Shown here piece after piece: positions 3,062 to 37,567 of a stretch of DNA of 64,000 bases. Source of the DNA: a candidate division WWE3 bacterium (GTDB lineage Bacteria > Patescibacteriota > WWE3 > JAUXAW01); assembly GCA_030619715.1 (NCBI GenBank), contig JAUXAW010000002.1, positions 1,221 to 65,220 on the forward strand. The letters are read 5' to 3'. Each line of letters starts with the position of its first letter. Positions within the stretch are counted from its first letter, which is position 1. Below the pieces are notes generated by a model. The model was not told the DNA's origin. It saw only the letters and a list, made by a program, of their open reading frames with translations, and did no database searches. The position numbers and the translations under genes are program-made.

Positions 3062-3712
3062 ATGCCAGAACCGTATGTTCCCAAACCGCGAAGACCTGTA
3101 CGTCAGAGAACGGCTGACAGCGCTATGCATTGGCTCGCTCGGTTATTCCGGGCCGACGTGGCCATTGGACCCCTGGAGAAGGGGTTCACCCTCGTCGTCT
3201 TCTTCCTTGCTGGATTGGTGGTTGGGGGAGCTCTTGGAGACATCCTTCCATTACCGTCACTCCTTTGCCGGCTGATAGGCGCTGGCATAGGTTTAGCGGT
3301 TGCCGGTCCTGCACGGAAACTCCCAATCCGCTGGGGGCAAGCGGGAGTAGTGGGGGCAACACTTCTTGCTATTCTCGTCTCCTGCGGTGCTGGTTCCGTA
3401 GGGCAGCTTGCTGCCCTGACCAAAGGAACGGTAACAGCTTACCGGCTGGAGAGTGGGGACAACACCATCCTCGCCACCGGACCCGCTCGGGGGTGCCAGA
3501 TAGCCATAAACGAGTTTAACCTTGGCCTCCTCTCCGAAGAAGAGATGAGGGAACAATGTGGTGACTCGTTAGCACCGGCGCAAGTAGAAGAAGGAGAAAA
3601 GACCGCCTTGCGGATACCCAAACCCAGTTTCCTTTTGTTCGTTTGGGCGGGTATCCAAATTCTGCTGGTGGCAGTGGTTTTGGTTTTCATCTTCAGAAAA
3701 CCGCCGCCCTAG
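3062..3712 (+). CDS. hypothetical polytopic membrane protein (GC-rich)
   Basis: ATG at 3062 preceded by ggaggagggag. Several hydrophobic helices. Starts 14 nt after the upstream stop, so likely co-transcribed. Confidence 0.5.
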   Translation: MPEPYVPKPRRPVRQRTADSAMHWLARLFRADVAIGPLEKGFTLVVFFLAGLVVGGALGDILPLPSLLCRLIGAGIGLAVAGPARKLPIRWGQAGVVGATLLAILVSCGAGSVGQLAALTKGTVTAYRLESGDNTILATGPARGCQIAINEFNLGLLSEEEMREQCGDSLAPAQVEEGEKTALRIPKPSFLLFVWAGIQILLVAVVLVFIFRKPPP

Positions 3713-21955: not shown

Positions 21956-22040
21956 GGAGGGTTGGCAGAGTGGTAATGCAGCGGCTTGCTAAGCCGTAAT
22001 CCTGACGGATTCACAGGTTCGAATCCTGTACCCTCCGCCA
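21956..22040 (+). tRNA. tRNA-Ser (anticodon GCT)
   Basis: Manual fold: acceptor ggagggt/accctcc, anticodon stem gcggc/gccgt, loop ttGCTaa, long variable arm, T-loop ttcgaat, encoded CCA. Preceded by promoter-like ttgatt..17..tggtagtat. Confidence 0.85.
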
Positions 22041-22041
22041 T

Positions 22042-22130
22042 GGAGGAGTGGCCGAGCGGTTTATGGCGCTGGTCTTGAAAACCAGTGGCGCGAAAGCGCC
22101 TCGCAGGTTCGAATCCTGTCTCCTCCGCCA
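22042..22130 (+). tRNA. tRNA-Ser (anticodon TGA)
   Basis: Anticodon stem ctggt/accag, loop ctTGAaa, long variable arm, CCA encoded. 1 nt after the previous tRNA. Confidence 0.85.
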
Positions 22131-22144
22131 CGTAAAAAATTATC

Positions 22145-22666
22145 ATGCCCGAAGAAGTAAAAGAAATAAACAAGTTTGTTTCTGACGAAATAAAAACTTT
22201 AGTTTCTTGGAAATCGCCGCTGCGGATTTTCAAAAAGCGGGACAAAAAGCACTTTACCAATTTAATTTTGGTCGTCTTTATCATCTCCCTCGTCTTGATC
22301 TTTTTCAAAGAGTTTCTGCTGGTCGGGGTGATTCTGGCTTTGGTTTTCGTCGCCTATGTCAATTCAAGTGTTGAGCCGCCGGAATTTGAGCACAAGATCA
22401 CGACCCAGGGCTTAACCTCCGGGGGGCACACTTATCTTTGGGACGAGTTGAAGGAGTTTTGGCTGGTTAAAAAGGATCGGCAGACGGTCCTAAACATCGA
22501 TACTAAGGTGCGGTTTCCCGGACGGCTTTTCATCGTCCTTAATGAGGGAAATGTGGAGGAGGTCAGGCAGGCTCTTTCTAAGTATATTTCCTTCCGCGAG
22601 CAGCCAAAAGTCGCCTGGCTCGACCAGCTGACCGATTGGTTTTCTCAAAAACTACAACTAGGTTGA
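22145..22666 (+). CDS. hypothetical membrane protein (2 TM)
   Basis: 173-aa ORF between tRNA pairs. Hydrophobic segment LILVVFIISLVLIFFKEFLLVGVILALVFVAYV. Confidence 0.5.
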   Translation: MPEEVKEINKFVSDEIKTLVSWKSPLRIFKKRDKKHFTNLILVVFIISLVLIFFKEFLLVGVILALVFVAYVNSSVEPPEFEHKITTQGLTSGGHTYLWDELKEFWLVKKDRQTVLNIDTKVRFPGRLFIVLNEGNVEEVRQALSKYISFREQPKVAWLDQLTDWFSQKLQLG

Positions 22667-22742
22667 GCGCCCATGGCTTAATGGACAGAGCGCATCCTTG
22701 CGGAGGATGAGGTTGCAGGTTCGAATCCTGCTGGGCGCGCCA
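22667..22742 (+). tRNA. tRNA-Arg (anticodon read as GCG)
   Basis: 76 nt. Acceptor gcgccca/tgggcgc, anticodon stem catcc/ggatg (5 bp, perfect), loop ttGCGga, T-loop ttcgaat, CCA. G34 rather than the usual bacterial A34. Confidence 0.7.
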
Positions 22743-22764
22743 TCCGCCAAAGGCGGATTTGCGT

Positions 22765-22853
22765 GGAGGAGTAGCCAAGTGGTCATACGGCGCCGCTCTC
22801 GAAAAGCGTGCGGGTGAAAGCCCACGTGGGTTCGAATCCCACCTCCTCCGCCA
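22765..22853 (+). tRNA. tRNA-Ser (anticodon CGA)
   Basis: Loop ctCGAaa, long variable arm gggtgaaagcccac, T-loop ttcgaat, CCA. Preceded by small hairpin tccgccaaaggcgga. Confidence 0.8.
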
Positions 22854-22862
22854 TACCACCGT

Positions 22863-23564
22863 TTAGTTGTACACCTCCCAAATCCAAAAGGCGCGATCGA
22901 ACTCGAGCCAGGAGACTTTTGCTTTCTGACAGGCGATTTTCCAAATTTGATCCACTTTTTGGCGATCTTCGCGGTTGTAATCTTCTTTGTTAATAAATCC
23001 CCACTCATAAGTCAGTCGTAGTTTGTGGCGGTCGATTGGCATCGGGACTTTATTGATGTCAGGGTAGGGAAGTTTGAAGGTATTAACCATGCTTCGAAAA
23101 AACAAATCTCCCGTCTTTTTTCCAAACCCGCGAAACTGATAGATATTTTTTAAGACCTCCAGAGCTGCGGGTTTGTTGAAGATTTCAAAAACATCGCCGT
23201 TGAATTCGGCTAGCAGTTTTTGGGAATTGACTACCCATCTTTTGGCGGCCTCATTGGGGAAGCGGGCGTGGAGGAATTGAAGTGATAGCTTAGCCAGTCT
23301 TTTTTCGTCTGCCCTAGATAGCCTCTTGGGATCTAATAATTCCCTCCTCTCTTTAAATAATTCGTTTGCTCCTTGGTAGAGAGTCGTTGATCTCATTCCG
23401 TAATCAAGGACGGTAACGAGAAATAAGAAAACCGCCTTCTCTTGCCTGTTTGCCCAATCAGGCACCCAATCTTCGACGTTAATCTTGTTCTGGAAAACTC
23501 CTTTTCGAGCGCGAAAATCGGCCACCAACTTTTTGACAATTTGTTCTGGTGTTTTGGTTTTCAT
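22863..23564 (-). CDS. HhH-GPD superfamily DNA glycosylase-like protein
   Basis: Start taken at ATG 23564 (MKTKTPEQ...), which avoids overlap with the next gene. HhH motif FRGFGKKTGDLFF and downstream PIDRHKLR resemble the EndoIII-type hairpin and catalytic Asp region. Confidence 0.5.
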   Translation of the reverse strand: MKTKTPEQIVKKLVADFRARKGVFQNKINVEDWVPDWANRQEKAVFLFLVTVLDYGMRSTTLYQGANELFKERRELLDPKRLSRADEKRLAKLSLQFLHARFPNEAAKRWVVNSQKLLAEFNGDVFEIFNKPAALEVLKNIYQFRGFGKKTGDLFFRSMVNTFKLPYPDINKVPMPIDRHKLRLTYEWGFINKEDYNREDRQKVDQIWKIACQKAKVSWLEFDRAFWIWEVYN

Positions 23565-23568
23565 ACAA

Positions 23569-24036
23569 CTACTCCCGCCGCTTGATTTTGTTGATGTCGT
23601 CAGTTGTAATCCAAGCCGCCATTGTGCCGAAGCTGGTTTTGTCGATCGTGAAAGGTTTAACTTTTTCGACCGAATCGAGAAAGACAAAGATAGCGTAGTT
23701 TTTGTTGAGGATGTAGTTTTTAATCTCTCTGGGTATGGCTTCGAGGCCGAGGTCTTTTTTGGCGTGCTTTTTCATAACTTCTAACGCGTGATCGTTGTTT
23801 TTGATTTCGTATTGGAGAACCTTGGAGACTCTGGTTTTGACGGTAACCGGTTCTCCCGAGTTTTTGAAATAAAGATTATCTCCCGGATGAATCCGGTCCC
23901 ACGGCGTTATCTTTGATTTGTACCATCGCGACTCGGCGATCCTTGTTCCGTCTAGGATTTTAGGGATCAATCCCCACGACTTCTTCATAATCGCCACGTG
24001 GTCGCGTTTTGGTAAATCCCTAAGCGGTAGTTTCAT
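23569..24036 (-). CDS. ASCH-domain protein (PUA-like fold)
   Basis: 155 aa. ASCH-like N-terminus (ILDGTRIAESRWYK...GDNLYFK). Confidence 0.55.
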   Translation of the reverse strand: MKLPLRDLPKRDHVAIMKKSWGLIPKILDGTRIAESRWYKSKITPWDRIHPGDNLYFKNSGEPVTVKTRVSKVLQYEIKNNDHALEVMKKHAKKDLGLEAIPREIKNYILNKNYAIFVFLDSVEKVKPFTIDKTSFGTMAAWITTDDINKIKRRE

Positions 24037-24094
24037 TTCTAACCGATTTTAGCATAGTGTGAGAAGGGAAGGTGTGGAGAAGTTTTCCATTAAA

Positions 24095-24198
24095 CTCACG
24101 ATCGTGAGTTTAAATACCCCATTTTTAAAAAGTTTTGAAAGTTTGAAATGTCTTGAAACTTTCAAGAAAAGACCGTCTTTAATTCACGATCGTGAGTT
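24095..24198. promoter_or_regulatory. two direct copies of palindrome-containing motif (t)tcacgatcgtgagtt flanking an imperfect palindrome ttgaaagtttgaaatgtcttgaaactttcaag
   Basis: Read directly. Copies at 24096-24111 and 24183-24198. Lies upstream of the tRNA-Arg(CCG) promoter (tgttacaat at about 24252). Confidence 0.4.
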
Positions 24199-24270
24199 AA
24201 CCGCGCTCTATTATGAAATAGGGTGGGGATTGGGTTTTAGGGCTGGGTGTGTTACAATGTGGGTGGTTGT

Positions 24271-24346
24271 GCCTCCGTAGCTTAATGGACAGAGCGTCGG
24301 TTTCCGGAACCGAAGGTTGTGAGTTCGAGTCTCGCCGGAGGCGCCA
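24271..24346 (+). tRNA. tRNA-Arg (anticodon CCG)
   Basis: Acceptor gcctccg/cggaggc, anticodon stem tcggt/accga, loop ttCCGga, T-loop ttcgagt, CCA encoded. Confidence 0.85.
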
Positions 24347-27551: not shown

Positions 27552-28619
<1,068 letters not shown>

Positions 28620-28776
28620 CTCTCCCCAAGTTAGGAAGTTAGGTGATGCCTATTCTGTTTCTGTGGTTTTGCGTCAAATACTTCAGCGCTATGTAGTGCT
28701 AAATAATTCGTCAATTTTTACACCGAATGTTGCCGGTTGCTTTTGGTTCCTTTTTATGATATAAAAGAAAATGCGT

Positions 28777-28819
28777 TCCGCGGTAGCTCTCCGCCAGCTG
28801 GCGGAGGTAGAGCGAAGGC
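28777..28819 (+). pseudogene. partial duplicate of the tRNA-Asn 5' half (acceptor-D-anticodon stem) carrying a 16-nt palindromic insertion in the D-loop
   Basis: tccgcggtagctc[tccgccagctggcgga]ggtagagcgaaggc(atgtt) versus the genuine tRNA-Asn tccggggtagctc[aat]ggtagagcgaaggc(ctgtt) at 29062. The GIY-YIG start codon sits where the anticodon loop would be. Confidence 0.6.
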
Positions 28820-29071
28820 ATGTTCGAAGTGTACGCTATTTACAATAGAAAGAATGACAAGATATACATAGGGCAAACAAGGGATTTGGAGGCGAGGTTA
28901 AAGGCTCATAATGATGGGAGATTTACTAACTCTTATACGGCGAGGTTTGACGGCGGGTGGGAATTAATTTATAGTGAGCCAAGCCGGACCCACGCCCAAG
29001 CTTTAAGGAGGGAGAAGCAATTGAAGAGTTATAGAGGTAGGGAGTTTATTAAGCAACACATTCCGGGGTAG
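28820..29071 (+). CDS. GIY-YIG nuclease family protein (small stand-alone URI domain)
   Basis: MFEVYAIYNRKNDKIYIGQTRDLEARLKAHN (GIY...YIG...R..H/N). 83 aa. Stop codon overlaps the first bases of tRNA-Asn. Confidence 0.85.
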   Translation: MFEVYAIYNRKNDKIYIGQTRDLEARLKAHNDGRFTNSYTARFDGGWELIYSEPSRTHAQALRREKQLKSYRGREFIKQHIPG

Positions 29072-29136
29072 CTCAATGGTAGAGCGAAGGCCTGTTAAGC
29101 CTGCGGTTGAGAGTTCGAATCTCTCCCCCGGAGCCA
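29062..29136 (+). tRNA. tRNA-Asn (anticodon GTT)
   Basis: Acceptor tccgggg/ccccgga, loop ctGTTaa, T-arm gagagttcgaatctctc, CCA encoded. Short D-loop. Confidence 0.85.
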
Positions 29137-29190
29137 AACCCTTTAGAATGGCGTGATTACGCCATTTTCTTGTTTTGTGATAAGATTGAT
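29130..29190 (+). repeat. junction site F0: tRNA-Asn 3' end GGAGCCA core plus aaccctttaRaatggcgtRRYtacgccRttttcttgttttgtg arm; also at 33289-33345 and 34475-34540
   Basis: Three copies read directly. Arm contains hairpin ggcgt..acgcc plus T-run (terminator-like). Followed within 15-25 nt by a gene start in two of the three copies. Confidence 0.6.
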
Positions 29191-29193
29191 GCA

Positions 29194-29946
29194 ATGGGGT
29201 TCAAGCTATTGATCTTCGATCTTGACGGAACGGCTGTGCCTAACAAACCGGACGGGCTGCCTTCTGAGGCGGTTATCGGTGCGGTGGAGAAGGCAAAGAA
29301 ATTTGTTGAGGTCAGTGTAGCAACAGGTAGAGCTATTACCATGGCCCGACCGATCCTTAAAAAGTTCAACCTAACCTCTCCGTGCATCATCTCTGGTGGA
29401 ACACAAATCATCAATCCACAAACAGAAGAAACATTGTGGGAGAAAAGATTATCAAAGCATCAGGTTGAGAGAATAATCCAAGTTTGCTTTCCGTACCATT
29501 ACGAAATTCTGTTTGCGGAAGAGACCAACGGTTCTTCAGCAAAAGAAAAAAACGTCGTGGGGTCAGAGAGAATCGTGTATATCATGAACGTTGAAGAGGG
29601 GGATGATCATAAGATGCTAAGGGAATTAGATGAGCTAGATGAGGTGGCAGCCTACGGAGTTAAATCTTGGACTAAGGGTTGTACCGATATCCATGCTACT
29701 CACAAACAAGCCACAAAGAAGTACGCCATGAAGACTTTGTTAGAAATGATTGGGGTGGACAAAGAGGCAGTACTTTGTGTGGGTGATAGTACTAACGATT
29801 TACCGCTCTTTGAAACATCCGGCTTTAAGGTGGCAATGGGGAACGCGTCCGAAGAGATCAAGCAGCTTGCCGATTACATCGCCCCTTCAGTAGAAGAAGA
29901 TGGGATGGTGGAGGTTATAAATAAACTCATCGTCTCGAAGCGGTAG
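29194..29946 (+). CDS. HAD-superfamily hydrolase (Cof-like)
   Basis: MGFKLLIFDLDGTAV (DxDGT motif I). Later VGDSTNDLPLF (motif IV). Confidence 0.8.
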   Translation: MGFKLLIFDLDGTAVPNKPDGLPSEAVIGAVEKAKKFVEVSVATGRAITMARPILKKFNLTSPCIISGGTQIINPQTEETLWEKRLSKHQVERIIQVCFPYHYEILFAEETNGSSAKEKNVVGSERIVYIMNVEEGDDHKMLRELDELDEVAAYGVKSWTKGCTDIHATHKQATKKYAMKTLLEMIGVDKEAVLCVGDSTNDLPLFETSGFKVAMGNASEEIKQLADYIAPSVEEDGMVEVINKLIVSKR

Positions 29947-30122
29947 CTAGTTCCAGCTCCATCCCCTACACAAATCTTGCCAAAGCGGGTACCGATGTTC
30001 TATCTTTGACAAAATAGGTTCGAAGTTCCGCCTCGGTTTCGCCCACGGCGGGACGGATTGTACGACCGGGGCCACCCCCTTCGCCAAGGCTTCGGAGGGC
30101 AAGCCCCTCCCGTCACATATTG

Positions 30123-30150
30123 CCACCCCCACCCCAAAATCTGATACAAT
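30123..30150 (+). promoter_or_regulatory. cassette promoter module Mp (ccacccccaccccaaaatcTGataCAAT), partial copy
   Basis: Extended -10-like TGATACAAT lies 10 nt before the SDR start. Same module at 32407-32470 and 39402-39465. Confidence 0.5.
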
Positions 30151-30159
30151 AATCGTACG

Positions 30160-30900
30160 ATGGCAAAAACAGCTTTAGTTACTGGTGTTTCTCGAGGAAT
30201 TGGTCGAGCAATTGCTAAAAAATTAGCGAGTGAAGGCTATTTTATTCATGGAACTTACAATACTGGCAAAAAGGAAGCTGAGGAGTTAAAAAAGGAAATT
30301 AAAAATATCGAGATTTACCAAGCTAACTTCAGACATAGAAAACAAACCCAGCAGTTGGTAGAAAAACTAAAGGAGATTAAATTTGACGCTTTGGTTAACA
30401 ATGCAGGGGTTTTCCAACTTGAAGATTTTGATAATTATGATTTTGAGATTTGGGATAGTACCTTTGAGATAAATCTTAATGCTATTTTAGTTATTTGTTT
30501 AGGATTGAAAGATAACATTAGAAAGGGTGGGGCGATTGTTAACATTACAAGCACAGATGGGATGACCGGCTCCTTTGGGGGAATGGCATATTCAGCGAGT
30601 AAAGCAGCATTGATAAACCTGACAAAGAGTTTGGGTAACAATTTTGGACCAAAAGGTATTAGGGTTAACGCAATAGCTCCGGGGTGGGTCAATACCGATA
30701 TGGACACTGAGGTTGTAGGTGATGCTCCCGGCCTAACTCCCTTAGGAAGAAATGCTAAGCCGGAAGAAATTGCGAACGTTGTAAGTTTTTTGCTTTCCGA
30801 TGGGGCTAGTTTTGCCAACGGCGCCACTTTCGTTATTGACGGAGGTTATACCAACGTTGACCCCATTATGAAGAAGGAGGCGGAATTGGAGAAAAAATGA
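30160..30900 (+). CDS. short-chain dehydrogenase/reductase (SDR)
   Basis: TGVSRGIGRAIA (TGxxxGIG). YSASKAA (YxxxK). 246 aa. Confidence 0.85.
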   Translation: MAKTALVTGVSRGIGRAIAKKLASEGYFIHGTYNTGKKEAEELKKEIKNIEIYQANFRHRKQTQQLVEKLKEIKFDALVNNAGVFQLEDFDNYDFEIWDSTFEINLNAILVICLGLKDNIRKGGAIVNITSTDGMTGSFGGMAYSASKAALINLTKSLGNNFGPKGIRVNAIAPGWVNTDMDTEVVGDAPGLTPLGRNAKPEEIANVVSFLLSDGASFANGATFVIDGGYTNVDPIMKKEAELEKK

Positions 30901-31865
30901 AGATTACTGTTTTGTGCCCCAAATTAGAATTTACCAAAGCTCAACAGGAAAGATTAGCGAAGCTCGGTGAGGTTGTTTATACCGACAGCAGGCAAGAGTA
31001 TCCAACGGAAGAACTTATTAAATTAGCCAAAGGCTCCGAGATTTTAGGTGCAGACCCGGACAATTTAGGCGGCTTTGAGAAAGCTAAGCCAGAATTGACC
31101 AAACTAATGGAAAGCCTACCTAAGCTTCAGGGAGTGGCTCTAGCTTCAAGCTCATTTGAATGGATTGATTTAGCTTATTGTCGAAAAAGGAGAGTCGTAG
31201 TAACGAGTGTTCCCCACTACTCAACGGAGTCAGTTGCTGAACACGCTTTAGGACTAATGATTTGTTTAGCGAAAAACATTATTATCAATGATCGAAAATT
31301 TTGGTCAGGCGAGGAGAGTAAGTTTGGTTCGGGCCCTGGTTTTGAGTTGAAGGGAAAAACGCTGGGAGTGATTGTTCTAGGGAACATTTGAAGTCGAATA
31401 GCTGAACTGGGTCAAGCAATAGGTATGAGGGTTATCGCGTATAATCGGACCCCAAAAAGACAGAAGGGAGTTGAGATGAAATCTCTAGATAAAGTTTTGT
31501 CAGAATCTGATGTGCTTTCAGTTAACCTTGCCTGTAACAAAGAAACCTATCGCTTTATTTCAGAACAACAGATTAGAAAAATGAAAAAAGGAGTGGTTAT
31601 TGTTAATCTAGTCGGTCCTGTTACACCAGATAGAGAAGTGGTTGACAAAAAAGCCATGGCCAGAGCTCTTGGGGCGGGTATAGTAGCGGCCTATGCTTAT
31701 GAGGCCGAGGATCTGACAAATAATCCGCTGTCTAAGATTGAGAATGCGATTGGTCTAAAAGGTTTTGCGTGGTACACAAAAGACGCTTTAGAACGGGCAA
31801 AAGAAATTTGGACTGACAGCATTATTTCGATTGCCAAAGGAAGTCCCATCAACGCAGTAAGCTAG
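30897..31865 (+). pseudogene. D-isomer-specific 2-hydroxyacid dehydrogenase interrupted by a single in-frame TGA (31389-31391) at the first Gly of the NAD-binding GxGxxG motif
   Basis: ORFs 30897-31391 and 31425-31865 are in the same frame. Read-through gives ...GKTLGVIVLGNI[TGA]SRIAELGQAIGMRVIAYN..., i.e. G-N-I-[G]-S-R-I. The paralog at 35521-36420 has IVGKGSIGTKIA. Confidence 0.6.
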
Positions 31866-31873
31866 GCTGTAGT

Positions 31874-31910
31874 CATACAGGCGTTCCGAACATCGTTTGC
31901 GATTCGGAAG
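31874..31910 (+). repeat. junction site C (degenerate): catacaggcgttccgaacatcgtttgcgattcggaag
   Basis: Aligns with site A at 32319-32356 (catacaggcgttccagacatcatttgcgatgcggagcca). Confidence 0.45.
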
Positions 31911-32038
31911 TCTTATTCGCTACCGCAGATGAGATGATTGTAGAAAGCGCAAGGTAATTATTTTAGTTTGCGCTATTTGTAAGCTTGATTTTTAAATGTG
32001 TTATTGTTATTAAAGTAATGAGAAGGAGGTGATAAATA

Positions 32039-32155
32039 GTGGCAAAAACAAAAACTTCTACCTACGGTAAAAAGAAGCAGAAAATTGTACCGGTTCGCCG
32101 TTACAAAAGAGGTGGTAAGTGGGTTAGAGGGCATAGACGCTCTACACCAAATTAA
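32039..32155 (+). CDS. candidate 38-aa highly basic protein (VAKTKTSTYGKKKQKIVPVRRYKRGGKWVRGHRRSTPN)
   Basis: GTG start 9 nt downstream of a strong SD (agaaggaggtg). Below the ORF-track cutoff. Lies in a cassette junction region. Confidence 0.35.
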   Translation: MAKTKTSTYGKKKQKIVPVRRYKRGGKWVRGHRRSTPN

Positions 32156-32273
32156 TAATAAATGCTTATTTTTGAAAAAGACATGGAGATTTTATGCAAT
32201 ATAAAGATTTTAAAATTGTGAAGTGGACTAATGGATTTCAGTTAGCTCCAGGGAGCTGAGGCGGTCTTCTATT

Positions 32274-32360
32274 GGAACTGGATCCAAATTTGGAAATCTG
32301 ATATAGTCTTCCGTGGATATACAGGCGTTCCAGACATCATTTGCGATGCGGAGCCATCCT
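32274..32360 (+). repeat. junction site A: X-type left arm (gaactggatccaaatttggaaatctgatatagtc...) + gatgcGGAGCCA core + tccttcttcgcc right arm
   Basis: Left arm is about 85% identical to 37666-37731. Core at 32350-32356. Confidence 0.6.
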
Positions 32361-32378
32361 TCTTCGCCAAAGATTTGT

Positions 32379-32404
32379 GCGGCCTTCGGGCCGCTTTGTT
32401 TTTG
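32379..32404 (+). terminator. cassette terminator module Mt (gcggccttcgggccgc + tttgttttt)
   Basis: Perfect 6-bp GC stem, 4-nt loop, T-run. Near-identical copies at 36476-36502, 37758-37786, 41425-41451. Confidence 0.7.
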
Positions 32405-32406
32405 CT

Positions 32407-32470
32407 GCGGAGACCCCACCCCCACCCCAAAATCTGATACAATGACCACACGCGGAGGCGAGGAAAAATG
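32407..32470 (+). promoter_or_regulatory. cassette promoter/5'UTR/start module Mp (gcggagaccccacccccaccccaaaatcTGataCAATgaccacacgcggaggcgaggaaaaATG)
   Basis: 62/64 identical to 39402-39465, which supplies the ALDH start codon. Here the module ATG opens only a 13-codon uORF (MSDEKYLKLGIKT) before the nitrilase ATG. Confidence 0.55.
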
Positions 32471-32512
32471 AGTGATGAAAAATATCTTAAACTTGGCATC
32501 AAGACTTGAAAG

Positions 32513-33265
32513 ATGGATAAATTTAGAGTAGCAGCGATTAATGCTGACCCCGCTAAGCCGACAGAGAGTTATCTTAGGAAGGTAAAAAGCCTAGATTGCA
32601 AATTAATTTGCTTCCCTGCTTACTATCGGAGAAATGAAAATTTGCCTGAAATGACTCGACTGGCTAAGGCTTATAAAACCTACATTCTGGCCGGTATTGA
32701 TGAGGTAAATAGCCGGAGCGGTTATAAAAGTGTCTTTCTTTTCTTCCCAGATGGGAAGAAAAGGAGACTTCATCGAAAAACAATTCTTGCCAATTTCGAG
32801 AAAAAAGATGGGTTTAGAGAAGGGAAAAGTATCAAAGTTTTTGCGTCGCCTTTTGGTAAAATCGGTGTTTCCATTTGTCTTGAGAGTTGGTATCCAGAAA
32901 CCCCGCGGATCCTGGCTTTAAAAGGAGCAGAGATCATTTTTGCCCCTGCCGGATTTGGAATGAAGAAGGGCCTGAAGTTTGACTTTTATGACAATTGGCG
33001 GGATATGCTCAAAATTAGGGCGATCGAGAATCTAGCCTACGTCATTTGTTGCACCAATGCGGTTGGTGAGAAGCCATTGGGGGTAATTATTAATCCAGAG
33101 GGCCGGATTTTGGCCGAAAGGATGGGCGAGGGGATTGTTACTACCACAATTAGCCTTAAGTGGGTAAGAAAAATGAAGACAGGCGATTATGAGGAGAGAA
33201 TCGCCGCCAAGATTCGTTTGGAGAAGAGACAACCTGGGTTGTATAGAGATCTAATTAGGAAGTAG
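32513..33265 (+). CDS. carbon-nitrogen hydrolase (nitrilase superfamily)
   Basis: E-K-C triad context: ...RKTIL..FEK... and GVSICLESWYPE (catalytic Cys in the C-[EW] motif). 250 aa. Confidence 0.75.
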   Translation: MDKFRVAAINADPAKPTESYLRKVKSLDCKLICFPAYYRRNENLPEMTRLAKAYKTYILAGIDEVNSRSGYKSVFLFFPDGKKRRLHRKTILANFEKKDGFREGKSIKVFASPFGKIGVSICLESWYPETPRILALKGAEIIFAPAGFGMKKGLKFDFYDNWRDMLKIRAIENLAYVICCTNAVGEKPLGVIINPEGRILAERMGEGIVTTTISLKWVRKMKTGDYEERIAAKIRLEKRQPGLYRDLIRK

Positions 33266-33288
33266 CTCTCAACTAATAATTTCAGGAT

Positions 33289-33345
33289 TGGAGAGCCAAA
33301 CCCTTTAAAACGGCGTAACTACGCCGTTTTCTTGTTTTGTGGTAA
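33289..33345 (+). repeat. junction site F1: ggaGAGCCA core + tRNA-Asn-downstream-type right arm
   Basis: gagccaaaccctttaaaacggcgtaactacgccgttttcttgttttgtggtaaaattggtct precedes the MBL gene start. Confidence 0.6.
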
Positions 33346-33354
33346 AATTGGTCT

Positions 33355-33939
33355 ATGGCAAAAGTTAAAGTTCTGATCGAGGGTTACGCAAAAGAAATCA
33401 AGGGCGGGTGGTTGGCTAGTTCAACCACGACTCTCATTCGGGATCGGGGTTTAAACATCGTCGTCGATCCGGGTAAGAACAGGTCACTTCTACTCCAGAA
33501 ATTCAAAGAAGAAAACCTCAGACCCGAAGACACCGACTTTGTCTTAGTGACACACACCCACCTCGACCACAGTTATCTACTAGGTATTTTTCCTAACGCC
33601 AGGGCCTTAGATGATGAGGTCGTTTACGATCAGGACAAAGAAGGCGAGCATGGCGGAACCATTCCCGGAACGGCTATTAAAATTATCTCTACTCCCGGCC
33701 ACGACCAGTTTCACAGCTCGCTCGTCGTTCCGACCGAAAAGGGAACTGTGGTTGTTGCTGGCGATGTCTTTTGGTGGGCGGACAACGAGGAGCAAAAGAC
33801 AGACGAAACGAGTTTATTAGAACGCAAAGACCCATTCGTCAAAGACGAGAAGGCTCTGCTTGAGAGTCGTAAAGAGGTTTTGAAAATCGCCGATTGGATT
33901 ATTCCAGGACACGGGAAGATGTTTAAGGTGGAAAAATGA
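33355..33939 (+). CDS. MBL-fold metallo-hydrolase
   Basis: VTHTHLDH (HxHxDH motif). Later GHDQFH, HG. 194 aa. Confidence 0.8.
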   Translation: MAKVKVLIEGYAKEIKGGWLASSTTTLIRDRGLNIVVDPGKNRSLLLQKFKEENLRPEDTDFVLVTHTHLDHSYLLGIFPNARALDDEVVYDQDKEGEHGGTIPGTAIKIISTPGHDQFHSSLVVPTEKGTVVVAGDVFWWADNEEQKTDETSLLERKDPFVKDEKALLESRKEVLKIADWIIPGHGKMFKVEK

Positions 33940-34415
33940 AATTAACAGCTAAACAAATCGAGCTCTTGAAAGAACTAATGATTAACTCTGCAAAGAAGGG
34001 AAATCTTGCCAATTCTGCTATGGTCCTGGAGAACGGCAAGCTGGTAGCTTCGGCCGAGAGTCTGGTTGTTTCAAATCACGATGCGACCGCCCATTCAGAG
34101 AGGATGTTGGTTGAGGAAGTATGCAAAAGGAAAAAGGAAAACTATACCCCGGGTTTAACCATGGTCACAGTTGCTGAGCCTTGCCTGATGTGTATGAGTG
34201 CCTGTGCCTGGGCCGGTTACAAAGAGGTTGCCTATATCATTCCAGCCGAGAAGTACATAGATAAGATTCCGTGGATGGCCGAGACCAAGGGACTCGACAA
34301 ACAGAAAATAGCCAACTCTTTTAGTGAGCCAATTAAGCTAACACACCTGAATCAATACGAAGATGAGTTTAGCGAGATATTTGAACAGGAAATGAAAGGG
34401 CTGTTAGAAGGCTAG
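33936..34415 (+). CDS. CMP/dCMP-type zinc deaminase (nucleoside/tRNA-adenosine deaminase-like)
   Basis: HSERMLVEE (H[AC]E motif). EPCLMCMSAC (PCxxC motif). ATGA overlap with the upstream gene. Confidence 0.7.
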   Translation: MKLTAKQIELLKELMINSAKKGNLANSAMVLENGKLVASAESLVVSNHDATAHSERMLVEEVCKRKKENYTPGLTMVTVAEPCLMCMSACAWAGYKEVAYIIPAEKYIDKIPWMAETKGLDKQKIANSFSEPIKLTHLNQYEDEFSEIFEQEMKGLLEG

Positions 34416-34450
34416 CATCGGCACTACCGCCGAACAAATCTCCTGAAAGT

Positions 34451-34540
34451 AGGTTCCGACGTGTTCAACCACGTGGAGCCAAACCCTTTAAAATGGCGTA
34501 ACTACGCCATTTTCTTGTTTTGTGGTAGAATTGGTCCTGT
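34451..34540 (+). repeat. junction site F2: Y-type left arm (aggttccgacgtgttcaaccacgt) + GGAGCCA core + tRNA-Asn-downstream-type right arm
   Basis: Left arm matches site E (41385-41399). Right arm matches F0/F1. Core at 34475-34481. Confidence 0.6.
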
Positions 34541-34709
34541 AGGTAAAAAACTAGTGGTAAGGTTGATTGTTGCAAGCGATTACGACCTTGACCTGGCATT
34601 ACTTAAAGTTCCTAAGGGAGTAGAGTTGGAATTTTATAAATTATAAAGTAACCATAATTCTATGGTTTATTCGTCAAAATTGTTTCTTAACAGATAAGAA
34701 TAATCAAAA

Positions 34710-35351
34710 ATGGCATTCAAAAGAAACATGAACCAGGAGGAAATGATTAGTTTTATTGATAATGAATTATTTCCTCAAATTAAGAAAGAGATTAAAAATT
34801 GGATTTATCCAAAAAAACAGACTGGTGGATATTTTGCAGTAACCAGGCAAATATTTTGCATGGTTGATTTCTTGGGTGCGGTGTATGCGGGATACCCTTT
34901 AGTGGAAAAGAGAAATGACGAAAGAGGAGAGAAAATTGCTACATCTAAAAAAGCCATAAAGTTCATTACTACGTTTTTTGAGCCGGAAGAAACCTATCAG
35001 CAGGATATTGTAACTAAACTATATAAAATGTACCGCCATGGACTTGTGCATCTCTACCAACCCAAGATTCTAAAATTGGGCTCTAGAAAAAGACTGAAGT
35101 GGTTTTTTTACAGGGGCGCAAGACACAAAGAAGAAATAAAAATAGGGGAAATAGTATTCAAAGATATTAATCATCTTCAGATATACATCGATGAAAATAA
35201 CAGAAAGCACAGCTATCTTGTTATTAGTATTGATTGTCTTTATAAGGACTTTGAAGAGGCAATCAAGCGATATAGGTACAAGTTAGCAAATACAAAGTGT
35301 TTACAAAGAAACTGGCGTACGGCTGTTAATGCTATCTGTAAGCCCCGATGA
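34710..35351 (+). CDS. hypothetical protein in AT-rich (about 37% GC) segment; contains Rx4H (RHGLVH) HEPN-like motif
   Basis: 213-aa ORF. Composition is distinct from neighbours. The motif is the only hint of function. Confidence 0.5.
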   Translation: MAFKRNMNQEEMISFIDNELFPQIKKEIKNWIYPKKQTGGYFAVTRQIFCMVDFLGAVYAGYPLVEKRNDERGEKIATSKKAIKFITTFFEPEETYQQDIVTKLYKMYRHGLVHLYQPKILKLGSRKRLKWFFYRGARHKEEIKIGEIVFKDINHLQIYIDENNRKHSYLVISIDCLYKDFEEAIKRYRYKLANTKCLQRNWRTAVNAICKPR

Positions 35352-35520
35352 AAGTACTAAAGCAAGAGGATGGTTGGACTATTTGAGCTTCTTTTGCTCT
35401 TTGTGTAAAACCTTAACTTGAGTTAAAATATAGGAAAATGAAGATGAGGAGTAATATGAATAAATTTATCAAAAATTTACTAGAGTAATTGCATCCAGTA
35501 TAATTGATAGAAAGGACAAT

Positions 35521-36420
35521 ATGAAAAAGGTTGTAGTATTAGGTGCTAAACCAAACGATGACCAGAAGACGCGATTAGAGGCGTTGGGTGAAGTAAAGTA
35601 TCTTCCAAGTCCGTCTAACTCCGATGAGTTAATGAAGCAGGCTGGAGGAGCTGATGTTCTTTACAGTGATGGTGCATTTTTACTTGAGAGCTTGCCAAAG
35701 TTGAAAAATGTATTTGTAACATATCCATATGTTGAACTTGGAGTTTTTAATTCGGAAGAGTTGAAGAAAAATGGTGTGTTGGTTGCAAACTCTCAAGGAG
35801 GCAATAGACCTTCAATTATTGAGTGGGTAATGTTTATGGTTTTGTCTTTGTTTAGGAAATTCACCCCTATGGTTAGAGCCACAGAAAATTTTCCTGTGGA
35901 GTTACAACAAAGTTTGAGTGGAAAGAAAGTACTGATAGTTGGGAAGGGTAGCATTGGGACTAAGATTGCAATACCTTGTGAGGCTTTTGGAATGGAAGTT
36001 TCATTTTTCGAGCGTGGAGACAATTTACACGCAAAATCTGCAGATGCTGACTTGGTGATAAATTCGCTTAACTGCAACTCTACCAGCAAGAACCTACTTG
36101 ATGAGAAATTCTTCATGTCGCTTAAGAAGGGAGCATACTACATTACATTTGTTAGGCCATATACCTATGATTTGGATGGATTACTAAAATCAATTGACAA
36201 TGGGGTGGTGGCAGGAGCGGCAATTGACTGCGACCCAGAGAAATTTGGGGATACTACAAACGAGTTTTATAAAAAAGCCCTAAGCGATCCAAAAGTGCTA
36301 GTAACCCCCCACATAGCCTTTTCTACTAAACAGGCAATAGTAAATGGTGGAGAAATAGCCGTAAAAAATATTGAGGCTTTCGTTGCAGGTAAACCCCAGA
36401 ATGTGCTAACTAAGAAGTAA
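35521..36420 (+). CDS. D-isomer-specific 2-hydroxyacid dehydrogenase family protein
   Basis: VGKGSIGTKIA NAD-binding motif. Catalytic region ...TPHIAFSTKQA... AT-rich. Paralog of the interrupted gene at 30897-31865. Confidence 0.8.
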   Translation: MKKVVVLGAKPNDDQKTRLEALGEVKYLPSPSNSDELMKQAGGADVLYSDGAFLLESLPKLKNVFVTYPYVELGVFNSEELKKNGVLVANSQGGNRPSIIEWVMFMVLSLFRKFTPMVRATENFPVELQQSLSGKKVLIVGKGSIGTKIAIPCEAFGMEVSFFERGDNLHAKSADADLVINSLNCNSTSKNLLDEKFFMSLKKGAYYITFVRPYTYDLDGLLKSIDNGVVAGAAIDCDPEKFGDTTNEFYKKALSDPKVLVTPHIAFSTKQAIVNGGEIAVKNIEAFVAGKPQNVLTKK

Positions 36421-36437
36421 GCCAGTTCTAACTTCTT

Positions 36438-36502
36438 CCACTACGGGGAGCCATCCTCCTTCGCTAAAGATTTATGCGGCCTGCGGGCCGCTTTGTTTTT
36501 GT
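36438..36502 (+). repeat. junction site D: ccactacggGGAGCCA core + tcctccttcgctaaagattta right arm + Mt terminator
   Basis: Left part resembles site E (ttactacgtggagtca). Right arm resembles site A. Core at 36447-36453. Terminator gcggcctgcgggccgctttgtttttg at 36476-36502. Confidence 0.55.
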
Positions 36503-36625
36503 TCTCACCGACTTGACAAAACTATGAGTTTACGATAGAGTTACCAGTGTAGTACTCAAAACCCTACAAAAGGGGGTATTACAACAAATAAGGGTGGCGA
36601 CCTAACCGCCAGAAAGGGGTGTGAC

Positions 36626-37567
36626 GTGGTAAAGAGATCTTTGTTCACGAGTTTTCCCATTTTAGCAGCGCTTCAGGAGGCCGACAAGTTCATAGCAGGC
36701 GTCCTCTGGGAGGAGAAGCAGGTGAGACCTGAAGGACCTCTCCAGTGGGTTGCCAGCAATGACATGCAGGCCGCCCTGATCGGTCCGCGCATTTGGGGCC
36801 AGACGTTGGCCGCACTGGCTGGCTTTGCAGAAGGGGAAATGTCTTCCATTGCCGACTGGGACGTGGAGGTCATCAACGCCTTCCTACGTGGAGAGGAGTT
36901 TGAGATTCAACTGCGTCCTTGGCCCAAGGAGGATCGGCTCACCTTCGGTATTGCGGCCATCATCAAGCTGCTACGCGAATGGCGCGTCCGGGGAGAGGAG
37001 GGTTACAAGGTGGTCGATTGGCGCAAGGCCTTCCGTCTAGGGGCTCCTGCAGCGCAAGGTGGGGTGGAGTTCTACCGTGCCTCTGGCGAAGTCGTGGTTC
37101 GCATCCCGACCAAGGTTCGTGGCGACTACGTCTGCGTCACTAAGGCATCGGAGCCAAAGACCCACTTTGACCTGCTGTTCTTCTGCATGGATACCCGGAG
37201 TGCGATGGAGCCGACCGACGAGTTCACCGGAGCCATCTTGCCCAACTGGACGTTCCAGGAAGAGGTTGACGTTTCGGATCTCATCAACCTTCGGACGGAA
37301 GACGCCGTTGGCCAGCCATGGTGGCTCGCTCAGGCGCTGATGGAAGGCAAGTCCGCCTTCTGCGCGGAGGGAATTTCCTTCAAGGCTGCCTTCGCCGCCG
37401 CCGTCATGCTCGGTGGGTCTCGGCCGAAGGAACCCGGCCCACGTGACCACGTTGTAGATTACGATTTGGTCATGTGGATCGATCGCGAAGACGTCCCTGT
37501 TCCTTTGGGTGCCGTTTATGTAGCGACCGACGAATTCTCACAGACTGACGTTCGCCTGGAGTGGTAG
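36626..37567 (+). CDS. hypothetical protein, GC-rich (about 60%)
   Basis: 313-aa ORF, GTG start after aaaggggtg. No recognisable motif. Composition suggests foreign origin. Confidence 0.5.
   Translation: MVKRSLFTSFPILAALQEADKFIAGVLWEEKQVRPEGPLQWVASNDMQAALIGPRIWGQTLAALAGFAEGEMSSIADWDVEVINAFLRGEEFEIQLRPWPKEDRLTFGIAAIIKLLREWRVRGEEGYKVVDWRKAFRLGAPAAQGGVEFYRASGEVVVRIPTKVRGDYVCVTKASEPKTHFDLLFFCMDTRSAMEPTDEFTGAILPNWTFQEEVDVSDLINLRTEDAVGQPWWLAQALMEGKSAFCAEGISFKAAFAAAVMLGGSRPKEPGPRDHVVDYDLVMWIDREDVPVPLGAVYVATDEFSQTDVRLEW

Follow-up and report, generated by a model that had tools for sequence, protein, structure and literature searches.

A small GIY-YIG nuclease gene, a conserved palindrome and a partial tRNA-Asn copy form a recurrent module at the tRNA-Asn gene of Patescibacteria

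Related nuclease systems and the layout of the locus

Endonuclease open reading frames (ORFs) of organelles, such as that of Allomyces atp6, insert while duplicating part of their target gene, so that its function is kept, and the mitochondria of fungi also harbour mobile GC-rich or double-hairpin elements, short palindromes that are linked to endonuclease ORFs. The free-standing endonuclease F-CphI takes part in collaborative homing with a group I intron at psbA, I-TevI binds an operator resembling its homing site 5' of its own gene, and in mobE an RNA hairpin hides the ribosome-binding site. Among systems characterised by experiment, the closest analogue of the locus described here is SegB, a free-standing GIY-YIG endonuclease of phages T4 and T6 that is associated with tRNAs and cuts inside tRNA genes, its breaks leading to homologous-recombination-dependent amplification of segB and tRNA genes with truncated copies left behind; its cleavage-site motif is RAWTSGAAC (PMC13096335). 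We read this motif as the reverse complement of the T-loop sequence GTTCGAATC. The element analysed here lies in a stretch of 64,000 nucleotides from a candidate division WWE3 bacterium (assembly GCA_030619715.1, contig JAUXAW010000002.1, positions 1,221 to 65,220), referred to below as the window. It too is a free-standing GIY-YIG endonuclease gene at a tRNA gene, and in that respect of a known kind, but its palindromic cis element is unusual, and literature searches found no description of a module joining a GIY-YIG gene, a palindrome and tRNA-Asn.

All parts of the module that have a direction lie on the + strand. The original prediction, made from the window alone, had described a 43-nucleotide repeat of tRNA-Asn upstream of the nuclease gene, and this repeat is real, matching the intact tRNA gene at 26 of 27 bases in total. 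Positions 1-13 of this pseudo-half (tccgCggtagctc, 28777-28789), which hold the 5' acceptor strand, U8, A9 and the 5' D-stem strand, agree at 12 of 13 bases with 29062-29074 of the tRNA gene, and positions 18-31 (ggtagagcgaaggc, 28806-28819), comprising G18, G19, the 3' D-stem strand and the 5' anticodon-stem strand, agree at 14 of 14 with 29078-29091. Between the two stands the perfect, strandless 16-bp palindrome tccgccagctggcgga (TCCGCC-AGCT-GGCGGA, 28790-28805). It had been described as replacing the D-loop, and it is indeed present there, but only the three D-loop bases 'aat' have given way to it, G18 and G19 being retained, and it proved to be a conserved element that is also sited elsewhere. 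The nuclease ORF (28820-29071, 83 amino acids) opens, as had been stated, where the anticodon loop begins, its ATG at 28820 occupying pseudo-tRNA positions 32-34 (C32-U33-G34; ggcATGTT versus ggcCTGTT). It ends, again as described, within the intact, CCA-encoding tRNA-Asn(GTT) gene (29062-29136; ARAGORN; Rfam RF00005, 69.4 bits), whose positions 8-10 provide its TAG stop codon (29069-29071); the final codons ATT-CCG-GGG-TAG are supplied by the tRNA leader and tRNA positions 1-10. The window holds this one copy of the palindrome and no second copy of the nuclease gene. The pseudo-half matched no known RNA family at the gathering threshold, nor at E-values up to 5. No group I intron (RF00028) was found in the window at the gathering threshold or in 28620-29200 at E-values up to 5, and the nuclease scored 26 bits against TIGR01453, below the cutoff of 56; by these searches, the ORF would not be group I intron-encoded.

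The predicted protein is a member of the GIY-YIG superfamily by domain score (PF01541, E = 2.6e-15, 56.9 bits against a cutoff of 22.6, residues 4-70), by catalytic residues and by fold. Residues Y5, Y16, R26, H30 and E65 are invariant among 18 diverse members, and we take them to be the equivalents of I-TevI Y6, Y17, R27, H31 and E75. The ratio of nonsynonymous to synonymous substitution rates (dN/dS) was 0.05-0.19 for the closest pairs, indicating a functional protein under strong purifying selection. In an AlphaFold2 model with a predicted local distance difference test (pLDDT) score of 95.9, the catalytic core fills all 83 residues, with strands at 2-9, 14-20 and 47-55 and helices at 23-32, 58-68 and 71-78 forming the three-stranded sheet with helices on its sides that is typical of the superfamily. 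A Foldseek search against the PDB placed the UPF0213 protein BH0048 first (1zg2, E = 8e-4), followed by Slx1 (6seh, 4xm5 and 7cq3, E = 0.006-0.04) and At-HIGLE, with I-TevI and UvrC lower; the top matches were all GIY-YIG proteins, with template modelling (TM) scores of 0.56-0.67. A profile search against the PDB gave marginal matches only (I-TevI, E = 0.0052; 1zg2, E = 0.0075), and the protein did not fall within the SegB-like family (PF19835 SegE_GIY-YIG, E = 0.19, under the cutoff). No separate DNA-binding module of the kind that marks homing endonucleases is present in the 83 amino acids. As modelled, the protein appears to be closer to the structure-specific Slx1/URI branch than to homing enzymes of the classical type.

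The module shares features with each of the known systems and departs from all of them. Tandem units and partial tRNA copies at related loci look like SegB amplification products; SegB, however, is phage-borne, whereas the proteins of the type found here consist of an 83-residue core and are chromosomal in bacteria of the candidate phyla radiation (CPR), and SegB is without a conserved palindrome, an ORF/tRNA overlap or a fixed tRNA isotype, all three of which this cassette has. SegB reportedly also has a C-terminal DNA-binding part and a length of about 220 amino acids. The UPF0213 proteins (YhbQ, BH0048) and Slx1 are the best structural matches, the former being similarly small, and the structure-specific activity of Slx1 would suit a hairpin-forming cis site; the cassette nuclease nevertheless lacks the RING/PHD domain and Slx4 partner of Slx1, its sequence similarity to 1zg2 is no better than the marginal value above, and we know of no UPF0213 protein tied to a tRNA gene. 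A target-like pseudo-tRNA and a hairpin just 5' of the nuclease gene would recall I-TevI and mobE, although I-TevI has a separate DNA-binding domain that is lacking here. The organelle systems, to which there may be a likeness, differ in having mitochondrial protein-coding targets rather than a bacterial tRNA gene with a duplicated 5' half, and in that this cassette keeps one specific 16-bp palindrome across phylum-level lineages. As for F-CphI and psbA, at least four related loci have a group I intron inserted into the anticodon loop of the tRNA-Asn beside the nuclease, the same loop at which the pseudo-half stops, but most loci, including that of the window, are intronless, and some pseudo-halves reach positions 36-39 rather than stopping at the exact 35/36 intron site.

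Recurrence, conservation and exchange of the module

Homologues of the nuclease number at least 549, from metagenome-assembled genomes of Patescibacteria/CPR; most are 82-84 amino acids long, and the best are 60-73% identical to the window protein. A scan of one genome per species detected 516 loci, of which the best 80 were examined in detail. The same order was found at all 80: a 5' piece of the tRNA, the palindrome TCCGCC-RRYY-GGCGGA, an 83-residue GIY-YIG gene and tRNA-Asn(GTT). In the general plan of the cassette, tRNA positions 1-13 precede the palindrome and positions 18 to about 35 follow it. As located by ARAGORN, the tRNA begins a few bases before the ORF stop at 68 of them, and at the other 12 the contig ends in the tRNA or in the unit, or an insertion in the anticodon loop splits tRNA-Asn. 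Essentially all loci carry the motif (a)tt-cc-NNN-gtagctc, palindrome, ggtagagc before the ATG, the palindrome lying 29-63 nucleotides 5' of the start codon at 76 of 81 loci. The stop codon lies inside the tRNA at nearly all loci, and the C-terminus of the nuclease, I-P-G/R/L/A, is encoded by the leader ATT and the acceptor strand and varies along with the acceptor. The module is thus an old, conserved accessory unit of Microgenomates and Parcubacteria lineages and not a local scar. The original prediction had seen in the window the signature of an insertion into, or a target duplication of, the tRNA gene; the locus does have the build of a tRNA-Asn gene that harbours a nuclease gene and keeps an intact tRNA through duplication of its 5' half, but the event is no fresh one here.

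About 19 of the 80 genome contigs stop inside tRNA-Asn or at most 100 nucleotides beyond it, several at its exact last base (contig-end loci include L004, L009, L012, L016, L019, L022, L027, L037, L047, L048, L051, L060-L062 and L075), marking tRNA-Asn as a hot spot of assembly breaks, consistent with strain heterogeneity downstream. At L028, a second small GIY-YIG gene of another subfamily (3240-3530; MWYVYCLYNYDNDKIYIGYTGDFDRRI...) follows the first and precedes tRNA-Asn; as a separate pseudo-half with a palindrome belongs to this gene, the module is used by more than one GIY-YIG lineage.

The pseudo-half was compared with the tRNA of its own locus. Its first 13 bases are identical to the resident tRNA-Asn in 52 of 69 scorable loci, and its acceptor strand agrees at 7 of 7 bases in 59 loci, despite at least 12 distinct acceptor sequences across loci. 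Mean acceptor matches were 6.7 of 7 to the own tRNA versus 4.8 of 7 to the tRNAs of other loci; this control, together with the recurrence of the module, ruled out a chance or low-complexity match. In a per-position profile of 50 main-type loci, identity to the resident tRNA was 0.90-1.0 at positions 1-13, 1.0 at 18-25, 0.92 at 26 and about 0.65 at 27-28, and was at background from about 30 to 39. The pseudo-half also mirrors uncommon D-stem variants (GCGC for GCTC/GAGC) and the presence of an additional D-loop base. The tracking persists at synonymous divergences (dS) from 0.6 to saturation in clades with one vertically inherited architecture, and the spacers on either side of the motif are unalignable in clades where the pseudo-half stays matched. 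Conservation of the pseudo-half and palindrome amid scrambled flanks means that both are maintained and are not debris.

Pairing holds in 99.7% of the cells of the palindrome and pseudo-D-stem; three pairs have changed on both sides and none on one side, the sole unpaired cell belonging to the chimeric locus L003. Loop variants are all RRYY and differ by transitions only (AGCT 55, AGCC 12, AACT 10, GGCT 5, AGTT 5 and others). The arm sequence is almost invariant. Single mismatches in the hairpin comprise three GT and three AC, so that a bias of G-U over A-C, tried as a discriminator between RNA and DNA, was uninformative. Taken together, the near-invariant arms and the lack of a G-U bias would favour recognition of a defined DNA site or structure over a role that asks only for RNA folding.

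Relatives closest to the window were found by exact RpoD look-ups, and uninterrupted tRNA-Asn genes without the GIY-YIG gene exist among them, as the original prediction had proposed to check, in very close as well as distant relatives. In L179, whose rpoD is 97% identical over 1119 nucleotides, and in L168/L178, which are 95% identical at the rpoD 3' end and 92% over 4.3 kb, a plain tRNA-Asn without nuclease or palindrome follows rpoD after 39-40 nucleotides holding a TATAAA promoter. L169-171 (RpoD 88% identical) are likewise empty, the window tRNA-Asn being 91% identical to that of L169, and so are seven further metagenome loci (L106, L108-110, L116, L131 and L157) at which RpoD shares 60-76% identity with the RpoD of filled loci; none of the RpoD-anchored metagenome loci at 50-66% identity to the window carries the nuclease. 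Because it is absent from very close relatives, the module is dispensable.

Presence and absence at one site among close relatives, as expected of a homing gene, was therefore found, in the form of a larger segment replacement. Homology to both relatives with 99% identical RpoD ends exactly at the rpoD stop codon (28619), and homology to L179 restarts at 33290, at the second of the direct repeats described below. The 4.67 kb in between (28620-33289) take the place of 107 bp in L179 and contain a spacer, the promoter, the pseudo-half, the palindrome, the nuclease gene, another tRNA-Asn allele, a 60-nucleotide repeat and four to five cargo genes; the module therefore entered this lineage whole, inside a larger replacement. 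At 23 of the 80 loci, dnaG-rpoD is upstream. Around the nuclease genes most similar to that of the window (71-73% identical), the module is the same but the neighbours (PIN, Fic and GGDEF) are unrelated. At L003, L004 and L167, the sequence left of the palindrome is that of a natural tRNA-Asn allele unlike the resident tRNA, and at L003 and L004 the sequence right of it matches the resident tRNA; at L041, the pseudo-5' and pseudo-3' halves pair with each other and not with the functional tRNA. Lateral exchange is evident from the chimeric junctions, the differing neighbourhoods and the replacement found for this lineage.

Explanations of the module

The reading that we prefer, and which we judge to be an even call, is that of a selfish nuclease cassette, old and laterally exchangeable, which resides in tRNA-Asn and has its cis site in the palindrome. 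A nuclease gene would have entered the anticodon-loop region of tRNA-Asn, the 5' half being duplicated and the essential tRNA kept whole, and the tRNA promoter would now drive the pseudo-half, the ORF and the tRNA as one transcript. The Slx1/UPF0213-like nuclease would break DNA at or near tRNA-Asn and so provoke homologous repair through which the cassette is spread, duplicated or retained, as with SegB. The palindrome would be the recognition or structure site of the nuclease, an insert that disables or immunises spare tRNA-Asn copies, or both, and its arm may also throttle translation by sequestering a GGAGG ribosome-binding site. Tandem units are present at eight loci (L028, L030, L035, L040, L055, L057, L059 and L060), laid out as pseudo-half, nuclease and pseudo-half, then a nuclease, a nuclease fragment or nothing, and then the tRNA. 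Such units, the chimeric junctions and the palindrome-disabled spare tRNA copies would fit nuclease-driven recombination.

Several observations weigh against this reading. Both the nuclease family and the palindrome are absent from the 2.9 million viral contigs of IMG/VR, which gave no palindrome match and only three partial N-terminal matches to the protein; with the palindrome unmatched and the protein family essentially missing there, a phage origin was rejected. The 83-residue protein is without a DNA-binding domain, unlike I-TevI or the Seg homing enzymes. Recombination tracts of 9-13 nucleotides would be implausibly short as an account of the match of pseudo-half positions 1-26 to the tRNA. 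If the tRNA-Asn gene is the target, the intact neighbouring copy should also be cut, and no systematic sequence difference was found between the tRNAs of filled and empty loci. The sole near-isogenic gain or loss is a whole-region replacement rather than a clean insertion at the tRNA. Lastly, nuclease and RpoD identities are correlated (Mantel r = 0.48, p = 2e-4), suggesting that descent is largely vertical, and classical rapid homing is not demonstrated.

A bolder form of the selfish-cassette reading, which taken as a whole we regard as doubtful, would see in the 83-residue Slx1-like nuclease and the 16-bp palindrome the two parts of a selfish element, not recognised before, that has specialised on a single essential tRNA gene. 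In it, the nuclease would act on a hairpin, a cruciform or folded tRNA-gene DNA, the palindrome would be copied into the D- or T-loop of every spare tRNA-Asn copy and thereby mark or disable it, and the ORF would be wired into the tRNA precursor such that RNase P maturation and nuclease translation are mutually exclusive.

The main rival is a role at the level of RNA, in which the pseudo-half and hairpin would be a tRNA-mimicking 5' leader of a nuclease/tRNA-Asn operon, the hairpin hiding the GGAGG, an RNase P cut 8 nucleotides before the stop codon competing with translation, and the conservation reflecting RNA function. We think it rather unlikely to be the correct account, though an RNA-leader role may well coexist with a DNA role. 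One point in its favour is a candidate promoter of native tRNA-Asn type (TGaTATAAA, extended -10-like, 28757-28765, + strand) that fronts the pseudo-half with a leader of about 11 nucleotides in the window; a promoter of this type is also found just 5' of the pseudo-half in the L021/L024/L029/L075 clade. A simple consensus promoter scan did not list the site, but TATAAA-(12-13 nt)-gcgt|TCC also fronts the real tRNA-Asn in the empty L179, L168/L178 and L169; as promoter and leader are homologous to those of real tRNAs in these empty relatives, the pseudo-half occupies the native tRNA start. The transcription unit probably extends from the start of the pseudo-half through the ORF and tRNA to an intrinsic-terminator-like hairpin with a T run at 29145-29168 (+ strand), which was found by a consensus scan and lies within the 60-nucleotide direct repeat. 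Going by the coordinates, RNase P cleavage at 29062 would remove the stop codon together with the tRNA and so yield a non-stop mRNA, and the placement of the stop codon within the tRNA at nearly all loci favours RNA control. The ATG follows 13-22 nucleotides past the palindrome at 42 of 81 loci, and 17 of these have a GGAGG 11-14 nucleotides 5' of the ATG, the window belonging to both sets; in the window, the GGAGG is formed by the 3' arm of the palindrome with G18 and G19 and stands 12 nucleotides before the ATG. The strong conservation of pseudo-half and hairpin, with paired changes only, is also what an RNA leader would require.

At 24 of the 81 loci, however, a -10 box (at least five of six matches) ends about 6 nucleotides before the ATG. 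It apparently evolved from the pseudo-anticodon loop, and would imply leaderless mRNAs with the palindrome over the -35 position, so that the hairpin would lie 5' of the transcript start. The hairpin position also differs by clade (-3, 3, 8, 13 or 25), and hairpins occur in pseudo-3' halves and introns, far from start codons. The balance of three GT against three AC mismatches and arms that are conserved beyond mere pairing speak against an RNA role as well, and the leader of the window folds with a z-score of only -1.15, which is not notable. Pairing of the pseudo-acceptor with the tRNA 3' strand was considered as the cause of the covariation and is weakened by five loci (L003, L004, L041, L167 and the window) that have a mismatched pseudo-acceptor and intact ORFs; the same loci count against RNA control.

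Less probable still is that the palindrome itself is mobile, as a minimal hairpin insert copied by a structure-specific nuclease into the loops of spare tRNA-Asn copies, into introns and into its own loop, nuclease and hairpin then forming a new two-part element. Its placement gives this idea its appeal. Identical 16-mers occur not only in D-loops but in the T-loop of pseudo-3' halves (L026 and L041), in both the D-loop and T-arm of an entire pseudo-tRNA-Asn (L042), at the tips of group I intron stems (L077, with a degenerate copy in L007) and nested within themselves at eight or more loci (L016, L026, L031, L046, L047, L049, L070 and L165). Among the loci examined, each non-functional tRNA-Asn copy bears the palindrome and a functional copy never does. 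The transition-only RRYY loop variants, and a nuclease fold closest to that of Slx1, an enzyme of branched and hairpin DNA, are likewise in its favour. Against it, a locus carries only one, two or three copies, the rest of the 64-kb window is free of them, about 400 kb of related loci contain very few outside the module, and no known mechanism copies a 16-nucleotide insert without longer homology. Placement is moreover clade-specific and vertically inherited, so that insertions must be rare: position 13 of the pseudo-half is the main type, with position 8 in L007, L019, L021, L024, L029 and L075, position 3 in L013, L016 and L037, position 25 in L022 and position -3 in L041 and L167. Nor does the palindrome behave as a hairpin element of the REP/RAYT or IS200/IS605 type, the 64-kb window having a single copy and no Y1/HUH transposase being seen.

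A recent, genome-specific GIY-YIG insertion into this tRNA-Asn with target-site duplication would account for the 26/27 duplicate and the ATG in the pseudo-anticodon loop, but is very improbable given the same module and palindrome in hundreds of distantly related genomes and a foreign segment relative to L179 of 4.67 kb that includes promoter, pseudo-half, tRNA and cargo genes. An att-type scar of an integrase-driven element targeting tRNA-Asn is scarcely credible either, for although tRNA-Asn is an integration hot spot, a relative has a large serine recombinase element abutting the tRNA, and the 60-nucleotide repeats begin at the tRNA 3' end, the duplicate here is a 5' half and lies upstream, no recombinase gene is present from the end of rpoD at 28619 to 37000, and the module is unchanged at loci with unrelated neighbours.

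Neighbouring regions and significance

Group I introns (RF00028, 59-84 bits) split tRNA-Asn(GTT) at four loci (L001, 3261-3497; L007, 1063-1334; L021, 3264-3514; L055, 3348-3562), inserting behind the CTGT of the anticodon loop at positions 35/36, and the nuclease ORF lies outside them. By eye, L034, L077 and L079 resemble intron-split tRNA-Asn genes as well. To our knowledge, tRNA-Asn is not among the classical bacterial tRNA intron hosts. Within the nuclease ORF of the window, a promoter-like TTGACG-17-TATAGT (28947-28975, + strand; 10 of 12 consensus bases, with about 0.9 such sites expected by chance) hints weakly at a possible promoter of its own for tRNA-Asn.

Downstream, direct repeats of about 60 nucleotides that are 88-94% identical lie at 29130-29190, 33293-33352 and 34475-34535 of the window, each opening with the last 6-7 nucleotides of tRNA-Asn (GAGCCA), after which come a terminator hairpin and TGgTAAAAT. 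The first block that they bracket holds HAD, SDR, split dehydrogenase and nitrilase genes and the second MBL and deaminase genes, and degenerate tRNA-like remnants precede the second and third repeats. The dehydrogenase gene, D-isomer 2-hydroxyacid dehydrogenase-like, appears to be divided between two adjacent ORFs (30897-31391, 164 amino acids; 31425-31865, 146 amino acids), possibly as the result of a frameshift or of decay into a pseudogene. Just 5' of the second repeat, the nitrilase-like ORF (32513-33265) stops at a TAG inside a GTAGCTC remnant (tRNA positions 7-13, 33259-33265), mirroring the nuclease ORF that ends inside the tRNA. No recombinase was seen in the window. The same repeats occur in L179 at 1234 and 5366 with other cargo and no nuclease, which makes this a strain-variable cassette array at the tRNA 3' end. 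The nuclease had been placed at the entry point of this array, and the array does begin at the tRNA 3' end; with L179 having an array but no nuclease, and with such repeats near (within 3 kb) just 4 of the 52 further nuclease loci, any functional link would be putative, and direct-repeat arrays were rejected as a general companion of the module.

Other variation is linked to tRNA genes nearby. In L168 (3608-5675) and L178 (11108-13668), whose RpoD is 99% identical to that of the window, a gene for a 513-residue large serine recombinase adjoins a different tRNA-Asn allele 40 nucleotides past rpoD and overlaps it from the opposite strand. Next come HTH_17, an HTH_3 repressor-like gene and a methyltransferase/Mrr gene; this region looks like an integrated element at tRNA-Asn. 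When 21956-22853 and 22854-24304 of the window are set against 4954-5830 of L178, the tRNA block Ser-Ser-Arg-Ser is inverted in L178 (93.5% identity). What lies between tRNA-Ser(cga) and tRNA-Arg(ccg) in the window is missing from L178, where NUDIX genes stand in its place, which makes a second variable tRNA-linked region. Finally, tRNA-Asn is found 560-720 nucleotides 3' of rpoD in high-GC, actinobacterial-looking metagenome loci (L129, L133, L137, L140, L143 and L152), and that neighbourhood is therefore much older than the nuclease cassette.

If the selfish-cassette reading is true, a compact and widespread mobile or selfish module would be added to the biology of the CPR, whose small genomes are usually described as poor in such elements. 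A nuclease that consists of the catalytic core only, and that possibly finds its site through a DNA hairpin, could yield a minimal structure- or sequence-guided nuclease, and the ORF/tRNA overlap would be a natural conflict between tRNA maturation and translation. The locus is also a hot spot of strain variation, with three different contents in three near-identical strains, which matters for the assembly and binning of CPR genomes. More generally, a half-tRNA beside a tRNA gene can be a maintained, functional part rather than debris.

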